Source of the DNA: Candidatus Rifleibacteriota bacterium
GTDB lineage: Bacteria; Muiribacteriota; Ozemobacteria; Ozemobacterales; Ozemobacteraceae
Direction of reading: 5' to 3'
Length of the DNA stretch: 64,000 bases
Assembly (NCBI GenBank): GCA_051747585.1
Contig: JBNJGH010000002.1
Coordinates: 13,291 to 77,290 of the forward strand
Shown here: piece by piece, positions 47,175 to 55,350 of the stretch
Position numbering within the stretch: the stretch's first letter is position 1
Layout: every line of letters starts with the position of its first letter
Made by a program: the position numbers and the translations under genes
The notes under the pieces: model-generated
What the model was told of the DNA's origin: nothing
Database searches by the model: none
What the model saw: only the letters and a program-made list of their open reading frames with translations

Positions 47175-47600
47175 TTACCATTTATTGTAGGGAACATCAT
47201 TGCTGCCAACTTTTTCAGAGCTTGATACAATATCAAAAACATTAACTCCATTGGTAATTTGTTTGCCAATTTCGTCGGTAGAAGATCTTACACTCCAATT
47301 AGTTTTTCCTGTAATCGGGTCAACAGGGATTTTTCTTAGAAATCTATTCTCAACCAGTTCATTCAAACTTTTGGGATAGTATTCGTAATCTTCCAGACCA
47401 CTATTTTCACCTGAATTTTTCTGATAAAAACGGTCAATGGCTTTTCGAACTGTTGCAAGTCTTTCTCTAAGAAGCCTTTCTTTTTCGTTTCTGACAAAAT
47501 TTTTGCTTAAAGGTAATGCCGTAGCAGACAAAACCCCAATAATAAGAGTACATACAACGAGTTCAATCAGGGTTAGACCGGTTTTTTCAGTAATCGCCAT
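47175..47600 (-). CDS. Type II secretion GspG-like pseudopilin
   Basis: KTGLTLIELVV, YPKSLNELV, LRKIPVDPITG. Confidence 0.88.
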   Translation of the reverse strand: MAITEKTGLTLIELVVCTLIIGVLSATALPLSKNFVRNEKERLLRERLATVRKAIDRFYQKNSGENSGLEDYEYYPKSLNELVENRFLRKIPVDPITGKTNWSVRSSTDEIGKQITNGVNVFDIVSSSEKVGSNDVPYNKW

Positions 47601-48000
47601 ATTTGAACCCTGCCTGATCGCGGTTTTGTGAAAAATCATTTCCCTTGCTGTTATATAAAAGAATCAGTCCCTTTTGATTGTCGAGATGGTATTTTCCACG
47701 GCCATTACTTCCGACCCATTCTTCGGGAACTCGCTTTAATTCGTCGCCTGCCAGATCATCGAGTGTTTCGGGAAAATTTCCGTTATTATCAAGAGAGTAT
47801 CTGTAAACAGCGTTTCTCAGGACATCCAACTCTACTTTCAGCGCAGCGTCTTTTGAGCTTTTTAAAACTCTGGAATTATTGTAGCCGGCAACACTTACGA
47901 GAATCCCTATTATTGAAACTACAACCAGCATCTCGATCAGGGTAAAACCACTTTTACCTGAGAAAATCTGTCTTTTCTTATTATTTTCAATAGGTTTCAT
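47587..48000 (-). CDS. Type II secretion pseudopilin / prepilin
   Basis: SGFTLIEMLVVVSIIGILV, FPETLDDL. Confidence 0.88.
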   Translation of the reverse strand: MKPIENNKKRQIFSGKSGFTLIEMLVVVSIIGILVSVAGYNNSRVLKSSKDAALKVELDVLRNAVYRYSLDNNGNFPETLDDLAGDELKRVPEEWVGSNGRGKYHLDNQKGLILLYNSKGNDFSQNRDQAGFKYGDY

Positions 48001-48568
48001 AATTAAAAAGATTTCTTTTTACTCCAGATGGCATTGTTCTCTCGCCTTTTACAAAAGTAACCGGAACAATTTTAAATTTCTTGTCGAACTTAACCTTAAG
48101 TTTTCTCTGCAAAAGATTTAAAACTTTTTCAATTTCTTCAAGATTATCATTTTGTTCAATTACCGGGTGAGTTGCAAAGCGATAAAGTTCTTTGCTGATC
48201 GCAATAATCTGCTTAGTGGCCTTATCCTCATCTTTTTTCAAGGTAAGCAATATTCTATCGAGCTCATTTTTATGCCCTTTAAACATTGCAGTAAATTGCG
48301 GGAAATCATTAATCACCGGATTAATTTTTTCTTTAAGCTCTTTGATTATCGCAGGTTTAACCACTATTTTCTTTCTTTCCCCTAATTGGGGAACTTCATG
48401 ATCAGTTTCAAGAAAATATCTGTTTAAAGCTGTACTGTTTTCGTAAACCAGGGTACATATCAGAATAATGATCAAACCAATCAATACAGTTCTTTCTTTT
48501 GCCCTTAATCGAAGGGTATCAATAACATCTTCACGACGTTTAATTGTAAATTCACTTTTATTTTCCAT
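47987..48568 (-). CDS. Hypothetical single-TM protein in the pilus operon
   Basis: One TM helix, coiled region, C-terminal RNLFNY; translationally coupled to its neighbours. Confidence 0.65.
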   Translation of the reverse strand: MENKSEFTIKRREDVIDTLRLRAKERTVLIGLIIILICTLVYENSTALNRYFLETDHEVPQLGERKKIVVKPAIIKELKEKINPVINDFPQFTAMFKGHKNELDRILLTLKKDEDKATKQIIAISKELYRFATHPVIEQNDNLEEIEKVLNLLQRKLKVKFDKKFKIVPVTFVKGERTMPSGVKRNLFNYETY

Positions 48569-49095
48569 TATTTCACCAGTTGTTTCAGTTTAACTTTATA
48601 ATTTTTTCCTGAGGCTGCCACTATCTCCGAAAGAATTAAGGGATTAGGCAAACTCTCAAGCCCGGCAATAAAATGCCTTATATTTGAATAATCGGCCTCA
48701 AGACTCATGGAAATCGTGTAACAGGGAATGTTTAAGCCATCAAAGCTACTATTCAGCTCATATCTTACAAATTCAATAAAAACAAAGTTATACTCAGCAA
48801 CTTCATTTATTGCATTTATAATTTCAGGTAATTTAGAATTTTCGGGTAACTCTTTGTTAATATTTGCCAGCACTGCATCTAGTTTTTGAAGTTTAGTTCT
48901 TTGCTGCTTGTAAGTTTTTCGTCTTTTAAGATTTTTTCTGCTTTTGCGCAAAAGACTCTTATATTTACTAATTTGCCCGTTTAACTTTTCCTCTTGCGGT
49001 TCAATTAAAAAGGTCGGCAAAATTATGAGAATAACTAAAATAATGAGAGGAAAGGGAGCTTTTTCTTTTAATTTTCTAATTTCATTAGGATTCAT
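48568..49095 (-). CDS. pilO: Type IV pilus assembly protein PilO-like
   Basis: TM, coiled coil, ELPENSKLPEII, YSNIRHFIAGLESLP. Confidence 0.8.
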   Translation of the reverse strand: MNPNEIRKLKEKAPFPLIILVILIILPTFLIEPQEEKLNGQISKYKSLLRKSRKNLKRRKTYKQQRTKLQKLDAVLANINKELPENSKLPEIINAINEVAEYNFVFIEFVRYELNSSFDGLNIPCYTISMSLEADYSNIRHFIAGLESLPNPLILSEIVAASGKNYKVKLKQLVK

Positions 49096-49670
49096 CAGGG
49101 TAATGTCCCCCCTTCGCCGAGGTAGTCGACCTCAAGTTTAAAAGTAACCTCGGGGTTATTCAGTCCCACTCTCTGGTGCTGTTTTAAGCGTGGGTTCAAA
49201 AACATCTTGTTTTTAAACAGAATTTTTACAAAAGTGGTGAGATCTTTCAAAGATTCGGCATTACCTTCAATTGCCACTTTTACAAGTTTTTCAGGTATAA
49301 TTCTTATACGACTGAACATAATGCTACCGGGAGTTACCTTTTCCAGCGAACTGAATATCAGGGTAGTAGAATGTTTTAAAGCTTCAGAAACTCTTCGATA
49401 ATCAAGATAACTGCTTTCTTTTGTCACCAGTTCTTCTTTATCTGGCTTTATTTTTTTAATTTTTTCATAAAATTTGTCGTTTTTATCCTCTAAATGTTTA
49501 AAAGACTTTTTATGAAAAGTGTTTAAAGATTTGGAAGTAAAATAATTGTAGCTCCAGAAAAACAGCAGAACCAGTGGTAATCCATAAAGAATCATCAGAG
49601 AAGTCTTCAGCATGAAATTGCTGCCTTTTCTAAAAACTATTGAAGGTTTAAAGTTCAAATAATGTTTCAT
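49095..49670 (-). CDS. pilN: Type IV pilus assembly protein PilN-like
   Basis: N-terminal YLNF, TM, LEKVTPGSI, IEGNAES; lies between pilM and pilO. Confidence 0.8.
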   Translation of the reverse strand: MKHYLNFKPSIVFRKGSNFMLKTSLMILYGLPLVLLFFWSYNYFTSKSLNTFHKKSFKHLEDKNDKFYEKIKKIKPDKEELVTKESSYLDYRRVSEALKHSTTLIFSSLEKVTPGSIMFSRIRIIPEKLVKVAIEGNAESLKDLTTFVKILFKNKMFLNPRLKQHQRVGLNNPEVTFKLEVDYLGEGGTLP

Positions 49671-49678
49671 ATCTTCCT

Positions 49679-50761
49679 CTACTTAGCAAGAAGCCCGATG
49701 CAAGGAGCAAATTCGGGACCTGAGTCTATTAAATCTTTTTTTAGTTTGCCGGCCAATGGTATTTCATTAAGCGGATTAAAGACCATACATCTGGTTGTAC
49801 AAAACTCAGAAAGAAAGGCATCGAGACCTGAAATTTGAGCTCCTCCACCAGTTATGAATATTGAAGGCAAATGCGAAAGTCCGTATTTTTCCTGAAAAAA
49901 TCTAAAGGTTACATTTATTTCTCTAAGCCAGTTGCCAAAAATTTTATCTATACGTTCACGTTTTCCTATCAGTTCAACGACCTCGCTTCTGGTAGAAGGG
50001 AAAAATTTCTCTTTTTCTTTTCGTTTTGCTGCGTTTTCGTGATTTAAAGAATCCAGCATGGCAATGGTCTGAGTGAATTCATCACCGGCAGACTCTATGA
50101 CCCTTTCATAAATTAAAGTTCCTTTACTGTATGCCTTTACGACAGTAGTTTCATGGCCAATATGCAGATTTATTACCGTCTGATCTACGCATTTATCAGG
50201 AAAAGCCTCTTCAAAAAGATTGAAAACGCCAAGCGAGGAAGTGTCAAATGCCATTACTTCAAGCTCAAGTTTTGTTGTCAAAGATGACAAAACATCAATA
50301 ATATCCTTTTTTACTGCAGCCGCCATGATTCGATATGTATCCGGTTCTTCAGAATCCATGTCAGGCCCCAGTATTTGAAAATCAACCACCACTTCCATAT
50401 TTTCGGGTACCGGCAGATTCTTTTCAATTCGCCAGCTCAAGAATTCGGGTGATTTTTTTTCGGTTTCACTTAGCTTCATATTCAGCAGGTGCAGTTTAAC
50501 CCATCTATCTGGTAGACCTATGACTAAACCCTGTTTGGAATTTTTTATTTTCTTTGTAAGCCCGGCGATAATCTTCTTAAGTGCCTCTACATCTGAGACA
50601 TGGGGGTGGGTAAAGTCGCCGCCAACAAGCCCCTCGGGGATGTCTTTCTTCAAAAGCTGTTTAACACGATAACCCTGTTTTGAAGGTCCGGGATCGATTA
50701 CAGCAAGTTTAACACAGCTGGTACCTATATCCATGGCTATTAAGTCTGTATAGAGGTTCAT
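49679..50761 (-). CDS. pilM: Type IV pilus assembly protein PilM
   Basis: Actin-like fold motifs AMDIGTSCVKL, LHIGHETT, ITGGGA, FNPL, CIGL. Confidence 0.88.
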   Translation of the reverse strand: MNLYTDLIAMDIGTSCVKLAVIDPGPSKQGYRVKQLLKKDIPEGLVGGDFTHPHVSDVEALKKIIAGLTKKIKNSKQGLVIGLPDRWVKLHLLNMKLSETEKKSPEFLSWRIEKNLPVPENMEVVVDFQILGPDMDSEEPDTYRIMAAAVKKDIIDVLSSLTTKLELEVMAFDTSSLGVFNLFEEAFPDKCVDQTVINLHIGHETTVVKAYSKGTLIYERVIESAGDEFTQTIAMLDSLNHENAAKRKEKEKFFPSTRSEVVELIGKRERIDKIFGNWLREINVTFRFFQEKYGLSHLPSIFITGGGAQISGLDAFLSEFCTTRCMVFNPLNEIPLAGKLKKDLIDSGPEFAPCIGLLAK

Positions 50762-52653
50762 TCGACTACCCCTTCCTCAAAAGTAACTCGGTTCATCTCT
50801 TCAAAGGTGGTCAATCCCTTTTCGACTTTTTTCCAACCGGCTTGCCTTAATGGAATCAAGCCCTGCCTCATTGCGGCACGGCGTATTTCCAGGGGCGACT
50901 GGCGAGTTAAAATCATCGATTTAATCTCAGGAGTCATTTCCAGAACTTCAAAAATACCGGAACGACCTTGATAACCTGTATCGTGACAATATCGACATCC
51001 TTTACCCTTTTTGAACTTAACATCTTTATGCTGTTCAAAATCTACGGTTAATCTTTTCATTTCTTCAGTGATGCTATTGTCGTCAATTAAGCAATTTTTA
51101 CAATTAAGCCTGATCAGGCGTTGTGACATAATCAAATTAAATGAGCTGACAAATTCATAAGGGTCAATTTTCATGTTTTCAAGCCTTGAAATCGCATCTA
51201 TTACATTATTCGCATGAATGGAGCTAAAAACAAGATGACCTGTCAAAGCTGCATTAATAGCGATTTTAGCGGTTTCTGCATCACGTATTTCACCAACCAT
51301 AATTTTGTCGGGATCCTGCCTTACTATAGATCTAAGTCCCGAGCTAAAGGTTAGACCTTTTTTTTCATTGACCGCTATCTGAACAATATCAGGCAATTGA
51401 TACTCAACCGGATCCTCAATAGTTATAAATTTATCTCTTGGTGTGTGAACAAATTTAATTGCAGAATAAAGAGTGGTAGTTTTACCTGATCCGGTAGGGC
51501 CGGCCACCAGGACCATTCCATAGGGCTTGGTAACATTTCGCTTAAACATCAGTAAATCATTGCCCACCAGCCCAAGCTTCTGTATATCAAGCCCAAGAGC
51601 AGATTTATCAAGAATTCTTAAAACAACGGTTTCACCAAAAATTGACGGCAACACCGAGACCCTGAAGTCAACATATCGGTCATCTATTTTAAGCTTGAAC
51701 CTGCCATCCTGCGGAACCCTTTTTTCGGCGATATCCAATTGAGCCATGATTTTTAATCTTGAAATAACCGGGGTTCTGAATCTGGGCTCGACATCCGACA
51801 AAACCTCAAAAAGAACCCCATCGATTCTATATTTCACTTTTAACTGAGATTCATAAACCTCAAAATGAATATCACTGGCTCTTTTTCTAACCCCTTTCAG
51901 CAAAATAGCATCAACCATCCTCACTACTGTGGTATCGCTGCCAAAACCACTCGCAGTAGCGATTCCCGGTGCGGGAGATTCATCTTCTTCTTCATCTTCA
52001 TCAACGACTTCCAGGGGAGGAAAGTTTTCCAGATCAGAAAAAACAACCTTAGAATCCAGGCTGGTTTCAACCATTAAAGATAAAAGTTTTTGCAGACTTA
52101 CCCTTGAAGCCACAAGTGGCACAATTGGCAAACCCAGCTGAACTTCAAGCTCTTCTATGGCATCGACATTACCCGGATCAGCCATAATAAGATGAATATC
52201 TTTATTGTATTTTTTATGGGGAATAAAACAATAATTTCGCATCAGAGCTACATCAATGCTGTTAAACAACTCATCATTAACTTCATAATTTGAAAGATCT
52301 ACATATTCAATACCCAGTTCATGAGCAACCGCTCGAGCATACTCTTCTTCAGTTATAACCTTACGATCAATTAAAATCTGACCTATATTAGAAGGAATTG
52401 TTCCAAACTCCAGAGTGATTTCCTGAAGAAATTCGAGAGAAATAAAGCCTTCTTTTACCAGAATTTCGCATAAAGTTTCCTTTTTGAAGGTTGAAACGAA
52501 AGCATTTATTAAAGTTGCATCAGAAATCTCTGAATTCTGTTCGAGCTTTTTAATTATTTCGTCTACGTCCCCGGAGCTATCTTCCAAAATAGCATCTGCG
52601 GTCTGCGCATCTATAACTTTTTGTTTTACTAGATAATCTTTAAAACTTTGCAT
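50758..52653 (-). CDS. pilB: GspE/PilB assembly ATPase
   Basis: ASDIHFE, DIAEKRVPQDGR, GPTGSGKTTTLY, RQDPDKIMVGEIRD, tetracysteine motif. Confidence 0.93.
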   Translation of the reverse strand: MQSFKDYLVKQKVIDAQTADAILEDSSGDVDEIIKKLEQNSEISDATLINAFVSTFKKETLCEILVKEGFISLEFLQEITLEFGTIPSNIGQILIDRKVITEEEYARAVAHELGIEYVDLSNYEVNDELFNSIDVALMRNYCFIPHKKYNKDIHLIMADPGNVDAIEELEVQLGLPIVPLVASRVSLQKLLSLMVETSLDSKVVFSDLENFPPLEVVDEDEEEDESPAPGIATASGFGSDTTVVRMVDAILLKGVRKRASDIHFEVYESQLKVKYRIDGVLFEVLSDVEPRFRTPVISRLKIMAQLDIAEKRVPQDGRFKLKIDDRYVDFRVSVLPSIFGETVVLRILDKSALGLDIQKLGLVGNDLLMFKRNVTKPYGMVLVAGPTGSGKTTTLYSAIKFVHTPRDKFITIEDPVEYQLPDIVQIAVNEKKGLTFSSGLRSIVRQDPDKIMVGEIRDAETAKIAINAALTGHLVFSSIHANNVIDAISRLENMKIDPYEFVSSFNLIMSQRLIRLNCKNCLIDDNSITEEMKRLTVDFEQHKDVKFKKGKGCRYCHDTGYQGRSGIFEVLEMTPEIKSMILTRQSPLEIRRAAMRQGLIPLRQAGWKKVEKGLTTFEEMNRVTFEEGVVE

Positions 52654-52667
52654 AAAAATTCCTTACT

Positions 52668-53885
52668 TTATTGAATGTTTGAAGCAGCAGTAAGAACAGG
52701 ATAAAGCAGTGCAATAATAAGGGTTCCTACCACCAGGGCCATGCAAAGAAAGAGTACCGGTTCTATTAACGCGGCAATGGCATCGGTAGTTTCGGTTATT
52801 TCCTCATCATAGTGATCGGCAAGATTATCGAGCATTTCGCTCAAATTGCCCGATTCCTCTCCTACGTGAATAACTCTGGTCATAATAATTGGAGAATCCG
52901 GTATTCTCTTCAGAGCTTTTCCAAATCCCAGGCCTTTTTCGATTAATTCAGGTAGAATTACGAATCTAGCTGCAAGCACTTTATTTTCAAGAGTATCCAG
53001 AACGACTTCAAGACTTTCCAGAAGAGGGATTCCGCCCTCTACCATTGTTCCAAGGGTTCTAGAAAACTGACTGTAAGCGTAATTTAATTCAAGGTCTCTC
53101 ACAACCGGTATAGTAAGCTTTAATTTATCTATAAGCTTTCGCCCTTCGCGCCTTTTGGAATATTTTATCAGTCCAATTATCAAGATTATCAGAGCAAGAA
53201 AAAAGAACCAGAACCAGGTTCCTATAAAACCAGAAACAGAGAGTAGCATTCTTGTTAGCAAAGGCAGCGGCACGTCCAGACTTTTAAAAAGCCCGGCAAA
53301 CTCCGGTACAACAGCGACAACCATGTAAGTTACCGCGAGAGTAGATACTAAAAGTAAAATAGCCGGATAGATAAGAGCTGCTACAACTTTTCTTTTTATA
53401 GCAATTGAATTAACAAAATATTCAGAGAGACGCTTTAAAATATTATCAAGAGCCCCGGCTTTTTCTCCGGCAACAACTGTTTTAATATAAATTTCAGGAA
53501 AAATATCGGGGTGCCTGCTAAGAGCAGCACTTAAAGAAACACCTTCACTGATATCAGTTTTCACCTGAGCCAAAGCCAGGTTAAGCGGAGTTTCTTCGGA
53601 TCCGTCAAGAAGAACGTCAATGGCATCATTCATGGGTATGCCAGATCTGATAAGTGTTCTTAAAAGTTTTGTAAATTCGTTTAATTCTTTGGTACTGACT
53701 TTTGCTCCAACATCAAGAGACTCGTTTAATCTTTGAATTAAACCTGATTGTTCTTTCTTTTCAGAAATAATATAGTAGCCCTGCTGTTGAAAAGCTTCAC
53801 GCATTTCTACTACAGACTGGGTTTCAAATGTCTCTTCTCTTATTCTGCCTTTTTCATCAGCATATTTTACTTTAATTTTTTCCAT
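52668..53885 (-). CDS. pilC: GspF/PilC inner-membrane platform protein
   Basis: G.SLSAAL..HP.IF, AGEKAGAL, ALIYP, VGEESGNL, LIEP. Confidence 0.93.
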   Translation of the reverse strand: MEKIKVKYADEKGRIREETFETQSVVEMREAFQQQGYYIISEKKEQSGLIQRLNESLDVGAKVSTKELNEFTKLLRTLIRSGIPMNDAIDVLLDGSEETPLNLALAQVKTDISEGVSLSAALSRHPDIFPEIYIKTVVAGEKAGALDNILKRLSEYFVNSIAIKRKVVAALIYPAILLLVSTLAVTYMVVAVVPEFAGLFKSLDVPLPLLTRMLLSVSGFIGTWFWFFFLALIILIIGLIKYSKRREGRKLIDKLKLTIPVVRDLELNYAYSQFSRTLGTMVEGGIPLLESLEVVLDTLENKVLAARFVILPELIEKGLGFGKALKRIPDSPIIMTRVIHVGEESGNLSEMLDNLADHYDEEITETTDAIAALIEPVLFLCMALVVGTLIIALLYPVLTAASNIQ

Positions 53886-54021: not shown

Positions 54022-54681
54022 CTAATTTATAAAATGTTCGTTCAATTCAGCTTGTTTCTGAGTAAGCTCAAGAACCCATTGCTGGTCTTTATCGATAACA
54101 AATTCCTCTACTGTGCCGAACCATTCTCTGGCAGCTTTTTTATCTTCAAGTCTTCGATAAAGCTCGCCAACAAGGTACATAACTATTGGTCTGTTGTCTG
54201 GATTAGTTATTGTCGATCTATCAACCGAAATCTTTAAAAATTTTACTGCAAGCTGCTGTAGCTCAATTTCAAGTTTACGATTTTCCAGAATCCTGCAACA
54301 CCAGGAGCCTCTTAGATACAAATTACCTATGTGATAAGGATTTCTTTTATTGGCTTCATAAATTTTACCGGCCAGAAAAAACCTTAAAGCCTCAGGAGGC
54401 AATTTTCTGGCAATCGGCATATCAAGAATATCTTTAATTTCTTCGCTCGAAATAGAATTTCGCTCTGCTTTAGATGGCTCATAATCTTCGGGATAGGCAC
54501 AATAGTTGCACCCAGGGCATTGTACCAGAAAATAAGGCAACGGATTCTCACCCAGATAATGGGGGAAAAAATCGGAATCTTGCCCCTGATGAGTCACAGA
54601 CCTGACTACCCGCGCCTCAAACTCAGTTGAACATGCAGGGCATATAAAATTACTTTTTTTAAACTTTGTTCCCACACCCAT
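54022..54681 (-). CDS. DUF2225 domain protein
   Basis: CPAC...DSDF....G.NPL.Y....CPGCNY, LRGSW, YLVGELYRR. Confidence 0.85.
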   Translation of the reverse strand: MGVGTKFKKSNFICPACSTEFEARVVRSVTHQGQDSDFFPHYLGENPLPYFLVQCPGCNYCAYPEDYEPSKAERNSISSEEIKDILDMPIARKLPPEALRFFLAGKIYEANKRNPYHIGNLYLRGSWCCRILENRKLEIELQQLAVKFLKISVDRSTITNPDNRPIVMYLVGELYRRLEDKKAAREWFGTVEEFVIDKDQQWVLELTQKQAELNEHFIN

Positions 54682-54736
54682 CTCCAGACTTTAGTCAGAA
54701 TATATTAAGGTTAGTTGAAGCTGTCAACCAGTAATC

Positions 54737-55264
54737 TCATTTTGCTCTGGCGAGAATTTTGCCTACTGACTCCAGGGGCCAGAATTTCAATTCAGCCCTA
54801 CCCTTTACTCGATCGCGGTCGAGCAATCCCCAGGAACGACTGTCATGGGAATTATTACGATTATCACCCATTACGCAGAGTTTATCCCAGGGTACTTTTA
54901 CTGGACCATATGACCCAAAAACATATTCGGGTACAAATGGCTCAGACATTTTTTTGCCATTGCGAAATAAATAACCATCTTTTATTTCTATAATATCTCC
55001 CGGCGTTCCAACTACTCTTTTAATAAAGTCTTTTTCGGTTTCCAGGGGATATGAGAATACTACCACTTCGCCGACAGAAGGCTCTTTAATTTGATAAATA
55101 AGCTTATTTACTATTATCTTTTCATGGGAATGCAAAGCGGGCTCCATACATGCACCTTCAATAACAAACCCTTGTACAACATAAGTCTGTAAAAACAGAA
55201 AAAATAACAACGCCTTTAGAAAGTCTTTAAACCAATCCCTTAGTCCGTGTACAATACTGTTCAT
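54737..55264 (-). CDS. lepB: Signal peptidase I (S26) with Cys at the nucleophile position
   Basis: GACMEPAL (box B), DFIKRVVG (box D), GDNRNNSHDSRSWG (box E). Confidence 0.92.
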   Translation of the reverse strand: MNSIVHGLRDWFKDFLKALLFFLFLQTYVVQGFVIEGACMEPALHSHEKIIVNKLIYQIKEPSVGEVVVFSYPLETEKDFIKRVVGTPGDIIEIKDGYLFRNGKKMSEPFVPEYVFGSYGPVKVPWDKLCVMGDNRNNSHDSRSWGLLDRDRVKGRAELKFWPLESVGKILARAK

Positions 55265-55350
55265 CGACCAACTCCATTTAGGTCTATTTTTTTATGTACT
55301 TTTCATTCGGACAGATGAACGGTTTTTATTATAAAAAATCTAATTTTTTT

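Follow-up and report, generated by a model that had tools for sequence, protein, structure and literature searches.

A minus-strand gene at positions 54737 to 55264 of the window, the 64,000-nucleotide stretch of Candidatus Rifleibacteriota DNA analyzed here, encodes a signal peptidase I that carries a cysteine where the catalytic serine is expected. Signal peptidase I, which removes the export signals of secreted proteins, is a classic Ser-Lys protease and a target for antibiotics. Based on comparison with its relatives, the window protein probably functions as a thiol counterpart of this serine protease, and its cysteine is conserved throughout the window's family. The features on which we rely are as follows.

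54737..55264, minus strand: gene for the 175-aa Cys-type signal peptidase I (TIGR02227 and PF10502; fold matches SpsB and LepB)
55148..55150, minus strand: TGT codon of Cys39, which takes the place of the catalytic Ser (box B, G-A-C-M-E-P; from alignment and contig cover)
55019..55021, minus strand: Lys82, the general base (box D, F-I-K-R-V; Lys in 120/120 proteins of each of two homologue listings)
54836..54868, minus strand: box E, Gly133 to Arg143 (aligns with E. coli Gly272, Asn274, and Ser278, the last being Ser139 here)
55160..55222, minus strand: predicted single N-terminal membrane anchor, approximately residues 15 to 35 (hydropathy and model helix)
55304..55331, minus strand: sigma28-like (FliA/WhiG) promoter, conserved upstream of the Cys gene (two-part motif, family-wide)
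54699..54727, minus strand: conserved sigma70-type promoter after the Cys gene stop, for DUF2225 and the pil genes (11/12 consensus match)
54022..54681, minus strand: DUF2225 gene, the conserved downstream neighbor, given for context (PF09986; next gene in 18/20 loci)

A conserved cysteine in an accessory signal peptidase

The translation of the minus-strand open reading frame includes FVIEGACMEPAL, FIKRV, and GDNRNNSHDSR, and the product scored far above the cut-offs in profile searches (TIGR02227, 152.7 bits against a cut-off of 47; PF10502, 148.4 bits against 22.9). When it was aligned to solved structures, the catalytic serines of S. aureus SpsB and E. coli LepB fell in the Cys39 column. 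The window protein thus lacks the box B serine of family S26A and retains the box D lysine and an intact box E, the combination that a sequence-only reading of this DNA had described. The structural model (pLDDT 82) showed the beta-sheet fold of the family, with SpsB (probability 1.00, TM 0.61) and LepB as its top Foldseek matches, and its pocket residues appeared canonical. As for the anchor, one hydrophobic stretch (best 17-residue hydropathy value 2.0, residues 19 to 35) and a long N-terminal helix (residues 2 to 29 of the model) are predicted. A second cysteine, Cys130 (window 54875-54877), lies three residues ahead of box E.

A sequencing artefact at Cys39 was ruled out by contig cover, by the presence of Cys in homologues, and by the use of both Cys codons among relatives. 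Contigs from two runs of two studies, either of which may be close to the source sample, covered the TGT codon (X1, 55035-55185; X7, 55060-55236) with 0 differences. Contigs from RNA libraries span the gene, and such contigs are no readout of transcription.

Among the best 120 homologues listed, the 67 closest, part of which are named Candidatus Riflebacteria by their sources, had Cys in 63 cases and Ser in none; three lacked the region, and one had an unrelated N terminus. The remaining 53 had Ser in 52 cases and Cys in 1. The cysteine was encoded by TGC in 26/41 family loci and by TGT in 15/41, and dN/dS of the gene was low (median, 0.038; maximum, 0.12; 25 pairs with usable dS from 42 genes). 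Since both codons are used and dN/dS is low, selection acts on the cysteine itself. Positions flanking Cys39 vary while the cysteine stays, and the Lys, Gly133, Asp134, Ser139, Asp141, and Arg143 were kept in 93 to 100% of aligned rows, the shortfall being mostly gaps.

A pattern search of 87 phylum genomes gave matches in 46 of the 51 genomes of the window's family (Riflebacteria labels). The match in G016 was discarded because it is not an S26 gene, leaving 45/51, and the six genomes without the gene are 66 to 86% complete. The gene was found in 0/36 genomes of other families in the phylum, where two matches retrieved from G069 were not S26 genes; extra pattern matches in G016, G035, G050, G057, and G069 and at locus L126 were rejected on the same ground. 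One genome (G010) carries a second, divergent Cys-type copy (L045:5893-6489) that is 48% identical, lies in another context, and has no sigma28-like motif.

The window's genome contains two S26 genes, and the other one has Ser and sits in the order trmD-rplS-lepB-ylqF. Since this copy occupies that slot, a role for the Cys gene as the sole or housekeeping signal peptidase of the genome was rejected. A further S26 match was found in 44/45 Cys-bearing family genomes; the further copy was read in nine of these and had Ser in all nine (9/9). Outside the family, Ser copies were likewise present in 5/5 Cys-bearing genomes checked. The Cys gene is an accessory copy beside a Ser housekeeping lepB, and because every well-assembled Cys-bearing genome checked has another S26 gene, Cys alone may not be sufficient. 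Separately, the housekeeping Ser lepB at L001:1399-2430 bears an N-terminal extension of ~125 aa with no Pfam match, and comparable long frames occur family-wide.

In four genomes of another family, f5 (L068-L071), a Ser-type second signal peptidase follows carD and lies directly upstream of DUF2225, abutting it in three; at one of these loci (L069), a prepilin peptidase follows the pair. By its position, this f5 gene may correspond to the Cys gene.

Cysteine forms in other lineages

A search with one distant Cys protein uncovered a second clade, in which Cys was present in 119/120 of the matches listed and a gap in 1/120; several were named Armatimonadota. Scanning species genomes with a pattern yielded 86 stretches, of which 79 of the 80 examined were S26 genes, with taxon-naming titles that were mostly Riflebacteria and Armatimonadota, and a strict pattern matched in 37/301 genomes sampled from the second phylum. 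In a set of 148 new cluster representatives, the nucleophile was Ser in 136, Cys in 9, Ala in 2, and a gap in 1. The representatives P0251 and P0343, with Ala, have the Lys and box E intact and are possible inactive forms. Searches of viral contigs found no relative, and the ESM Atlas yielded generic signal peptidase I clusters only.

Four stray Cys proteins (22 Cys among the 120 matches listed) led to a third clade with Cys in 18/18 members, two of which are labeled Clostridiales; it accounted for 6/80 metagenome loci. In 6/6 loci, the gene sits between rplS and ylqF. Four of these loci have the Cys gene alone at that position (two of them, L191 and L192, apparently represent a single organism), and the other two, which are nearly identical, carry a Ser copy in tandem with it. 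Of the indirect signs that Cys forms carry out the usual function, this occupancy of the housekeeping slot is the strongest. All three clades keep the Lys and an intact box E, and no reversion to Ser was found among ~200 Cys-clade proteins, some of which are <60% mutually identical. Small Cys lineages are also nested among Ser proteins (L136 and P0413).

The Armatimonadota genes have a context of their own. A SigH-like gene lies nearby in 27/38 non-family-type loci, the conserved run being cvpA, DUF4342, sigH-like, (glyQ), Cys-SPase, (glyS) (L072-L150), which places a SigH-like factor outside the Bacillota; a prepilin-like DUF1559 gene was found near six Armatimonadota Cys genes. A SigH link shared with the window's family was rejected, as SigH, DUF4342, and CvpA all had no match in the window's genome. 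DUF2225 gave one marginal match in five Armatimonadota genomes and is not common to both clades.

Trees were built with the nucleophile column removed, by a fast method without a mixture model, and were unrooted. The 236-row tree required six changes, as did the tree of a 50-row subset, with at least four and at least two, respectively, forced by well-supported branches. A single origin of all Cys forms was rejected (p-AU 0.030; 20 Cys rows of the 50-row subset), whereas one origin for the two largest Cys clades was not (P = 0.39). Kinship of the Cys gene to the genome's own Ser copy was likewise not rejected (P = 0.20), nor was kinship to the Ser-type f5 gene that precedes DUF2225 (P = 0.42). 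Given the rejected single clade and the forced branch changes, there were at least two switches, and probably more.

A sigma28-like promoter ahead of the Cys gene

The two-part motif upstream of the Cys gene is similar to the flagellar consensus given in PMC8325347 (-35 TAAA, -10 GCCGATAA). It was present in 35/40 family loci, versus 3/40 on the opposite strand, and FliA/WhiG was found in 86/87 phylum genomes, including that of the window. Because the motif was absent from 37/38 other Cys loci, the sigma28 link is family-specific. As judged from this promoter pattern, the Cys gene is likely to be under sigma28 control.

Orthologues of two other genes carried the motif as well: it preceded a second sigma factor in 10/29 cases (at ≥13 bits; control, 0) and a secreted FadL/UPF0164-like protein in 12/23 (control, 0), and trmH in 1/13. 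A first matrix showed no enrichment genome-wide (114 matches versus 46 to 142 in shuffles). A second matrix, trained on three gene sets from other genomes without flagellar genes, marked 49/3078 genes in the sense orientation, flgK and flgM included, and 18 in antisense; about one-third of the motif matches may be due to chance. Flagellin genes scored low (best, 5.1 bits).

Genes marked by the second matrix encoded predicted signal peptides more often than others did (26/49 versus 777/3029; odds ratio, 3.3; P = 5e-5), under a signal-peptide rule that is crude and counts some false cases. The proportion was 20/40 for genes with the simple-pattern motif (P = 0.002), 7/20 for antisense motif genes (P = 0.44), and 12/24 for the subset with a clear ribosome-binding site (P = 0.07). 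In G000, sigma28-like motif genes are spread genome-wide (e.g., C11:12108-15158, C13:3385-4245, and C1:25246-26208, the last encoding an outer-membrane protein). This regulon seems not to be confined to flagellar genes, taking in many exported proteins as well as a second sigma factor of the RpoD-like type, which suggests a sigma cascade.

Proposed function and competing explanations

The protein resembles the short, single-anchor type of S26A enzymes (S. aureus SpsB, Bacillus Sip; also E. coli LepB) in its fold, predicted single N-terminal anchor, Lys base, and box E, and it shares with SpsB a Gly two residues ahead of the nucleophile. It differs from these MEROPS S26A enzymes in having Cys for Ser, fixed by selection, and in being an accessory copy with its own alternative-sigma promoter. 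Going by its sequence, it is a member of S26A by homology but lacks the defining catalytic serine; since box B carries Cys39, we file it as a variant rather than as a Ser-Lys member. Ser-Lys proteases engineered to carry a thiol (LepB Ser90Cys, SipS Ser43Cys, and LexA Ser119Cys) reportedly retain some activity; unlike in these laboratory constructs, the Cys here occurs naturally, and several lineages conserve it. Additional S26 paralogues with narrow roles are known (SipP, conjugative TraF, SodX), but unlike these, the Cys enzyme had no dedicated substrate gene that we could find, and it scored below the cut-offs of the TraF (TIGR02771, 25.8 versus 100.25 bits) and SodX (TIGR02754, 47.9 versus 63.25 bits) models. 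No description of a natural Cys-type signal peptidase I was found in the literature searched, MEROPS and subscription journals lying outside the search, and "cys" does not occur as a word in the accessible portion of a 2026 structural survey of the superfamily (PMC12984324).

We favor, as reasonably likely, an active, membrane-anchored Cys-Lys signal peptidase that supports a sigma28-driven export programme; that catalysis would run through the cysteine is likely, whereas tuning of the enzyme to a subset of substrates is somewhat doubtful. The mechanistic steps are carried over from family chemistry (the Ser90-Lys145 dyad and the roles of Gly272 and Ser278, as described in PMC4049620, PMC9360617, PMC12984324, and PMC12067869). 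Lys82, held by Ser139, would deprotonate Cys39 at the external face of the membrane, and the resulting thiolate would attack the bond that follows a signal peptide of the Ala-X-Ala type; the thioester intermediate formed in this way would then be hydrolyzed by water. More tentatively, the enzyme may be induced along with the sigma28 programme and take part in maturing its exported proteins, acting as an extra or partly selective peptidase beside the constitutive Ser LepB.

The main competitor to this proposal is a redundant second signal peptidase of the ordinary kind: Cys would be good enough, and a one-base change would have been fixed by chance with no special role. The ease of the Ser-to-Cys change, its recurrence in small lineages among Ser proteins, the canonical look of the pocket, and the Ser-type second peptidase ahead of DUF2225 in f5 are all consistent with such a copy. 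We nevertheless consider it unlikely, because ~200 Cys-clade proteins have not reverted to Ser even though Ser is one base away and the Cys codons interchange. A catalytically dead, peptide-binding chaperone similar to S. pyogenes SipA/LepA, an accessory S26-fold protein likewise encoded near pilus genes, appears very improbable. The accessory status of the gene, the existence of inactive S26 homologues (PMC4049620), and the presence of SipA among the fold matches are in keeping with it. However, in SipA, Asp48 and Gly85 replace Ser and Lys and Asn replaces Gly272 (same source), so that SipA has lost the catalytic pair as well as the glycine of box E, whereas the window protein keeps Lys82 and Gly133. 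The nucleophile alone has changed here, and always to Cys; the Lys and box E are intact in three clades, one of which occupies the housekeeping slot. A redox-gated enzyme, switched off by Cys39 oxidation or a Cys39-Cys130 bond, or a protease that cuts an anti-sigma factor, is quite improbable. The invariance of Cys130 in 61/61 family proteins, the SigH-like genes near Armatimonadota Cys genes, and the precedent of B. thuringiensis SipP, which cuts an anti-sigma factor (PMC8844934), point in that direction, but other Cys clades have Phe or Tyr at the Cys130 position, the window's genome has no SigH match, and no anti-sigma neighbor was found.

The neighborhood raises a further alternative, namely, a dedicated maturation peptidase for the adjoining type IV pilus or secretion system. 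Window positions 47175-53885 (minus strand) hold pilC-pilB-pilM-pilN-pilO, one unassigned gene, and two prepilins, by its gene content a type IV pilus or type II secretion-like operon. The order SPase, DUF2225, pilC, with the Cys gene two genes upstream of that operon, is as the sequence-only reading had it, and pilC, pilB, and pilM lie within 6 kb downstream in 16 of 20 family loci (one of the 20 is the second paralogue, and one is at a contig end). The prepilin peptidase after the Ser SPase-DUF2225 pair at one of four f5 loci, together with the control of pili by sigma28-family factors in some bacteria (PMC8325347), would also fit. Against this, a sigma70-type promoter past the Cys gene stop separates it from DUF2225 and the pil genes (29/41 loci; in-gene control, 0), no sigma28-like motif precedes those pil genes of the window that were checked, the genome encodes two A24 prepilin peptidases, the protein scores far below the TraF cut-off, and PilB, PilC, and PilM clusters occur at family loci only, being absent near other Cys clades. 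A pilus-dedicated peptidase is therefore extremely improbable, and the pilus link implied by the sequence-only reading is not supported. Its central proposal fared better: a natural, conserved Cys-Lys form of signal peptidase I is well supported by the comparative sequence evidence, and "specialised" draws support from the Ser housekeeping lepB alongside and from the gene's own conserved sigma28-like promoter.

A bolder extension of the favored Cys-Lys peptidase would have several lineages independently converting Ser-Lys to Cys-Lys for a gain beyond what serine offers (distinct substrates, thioester chemistry, or inactivation by oxidation), with a dedicated maturase of a sigma28-controlled exported set here and a housekeeping replacement in one Clostridiales-labeled clade; we regard this scenario as rather unlikely. 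Because Cys forms carry the plain annotation "signal peptidase I," databases do not show them as a class. Natural, selected Cys-Lys forms would allow a direct test of Ser versus Cys as the nucleophile on one scaffold, for which the several lineages and the Ser paralogues in the same genomes would serve as controls, and the sigma28-like promoter would supply a short list of candidate substrates.
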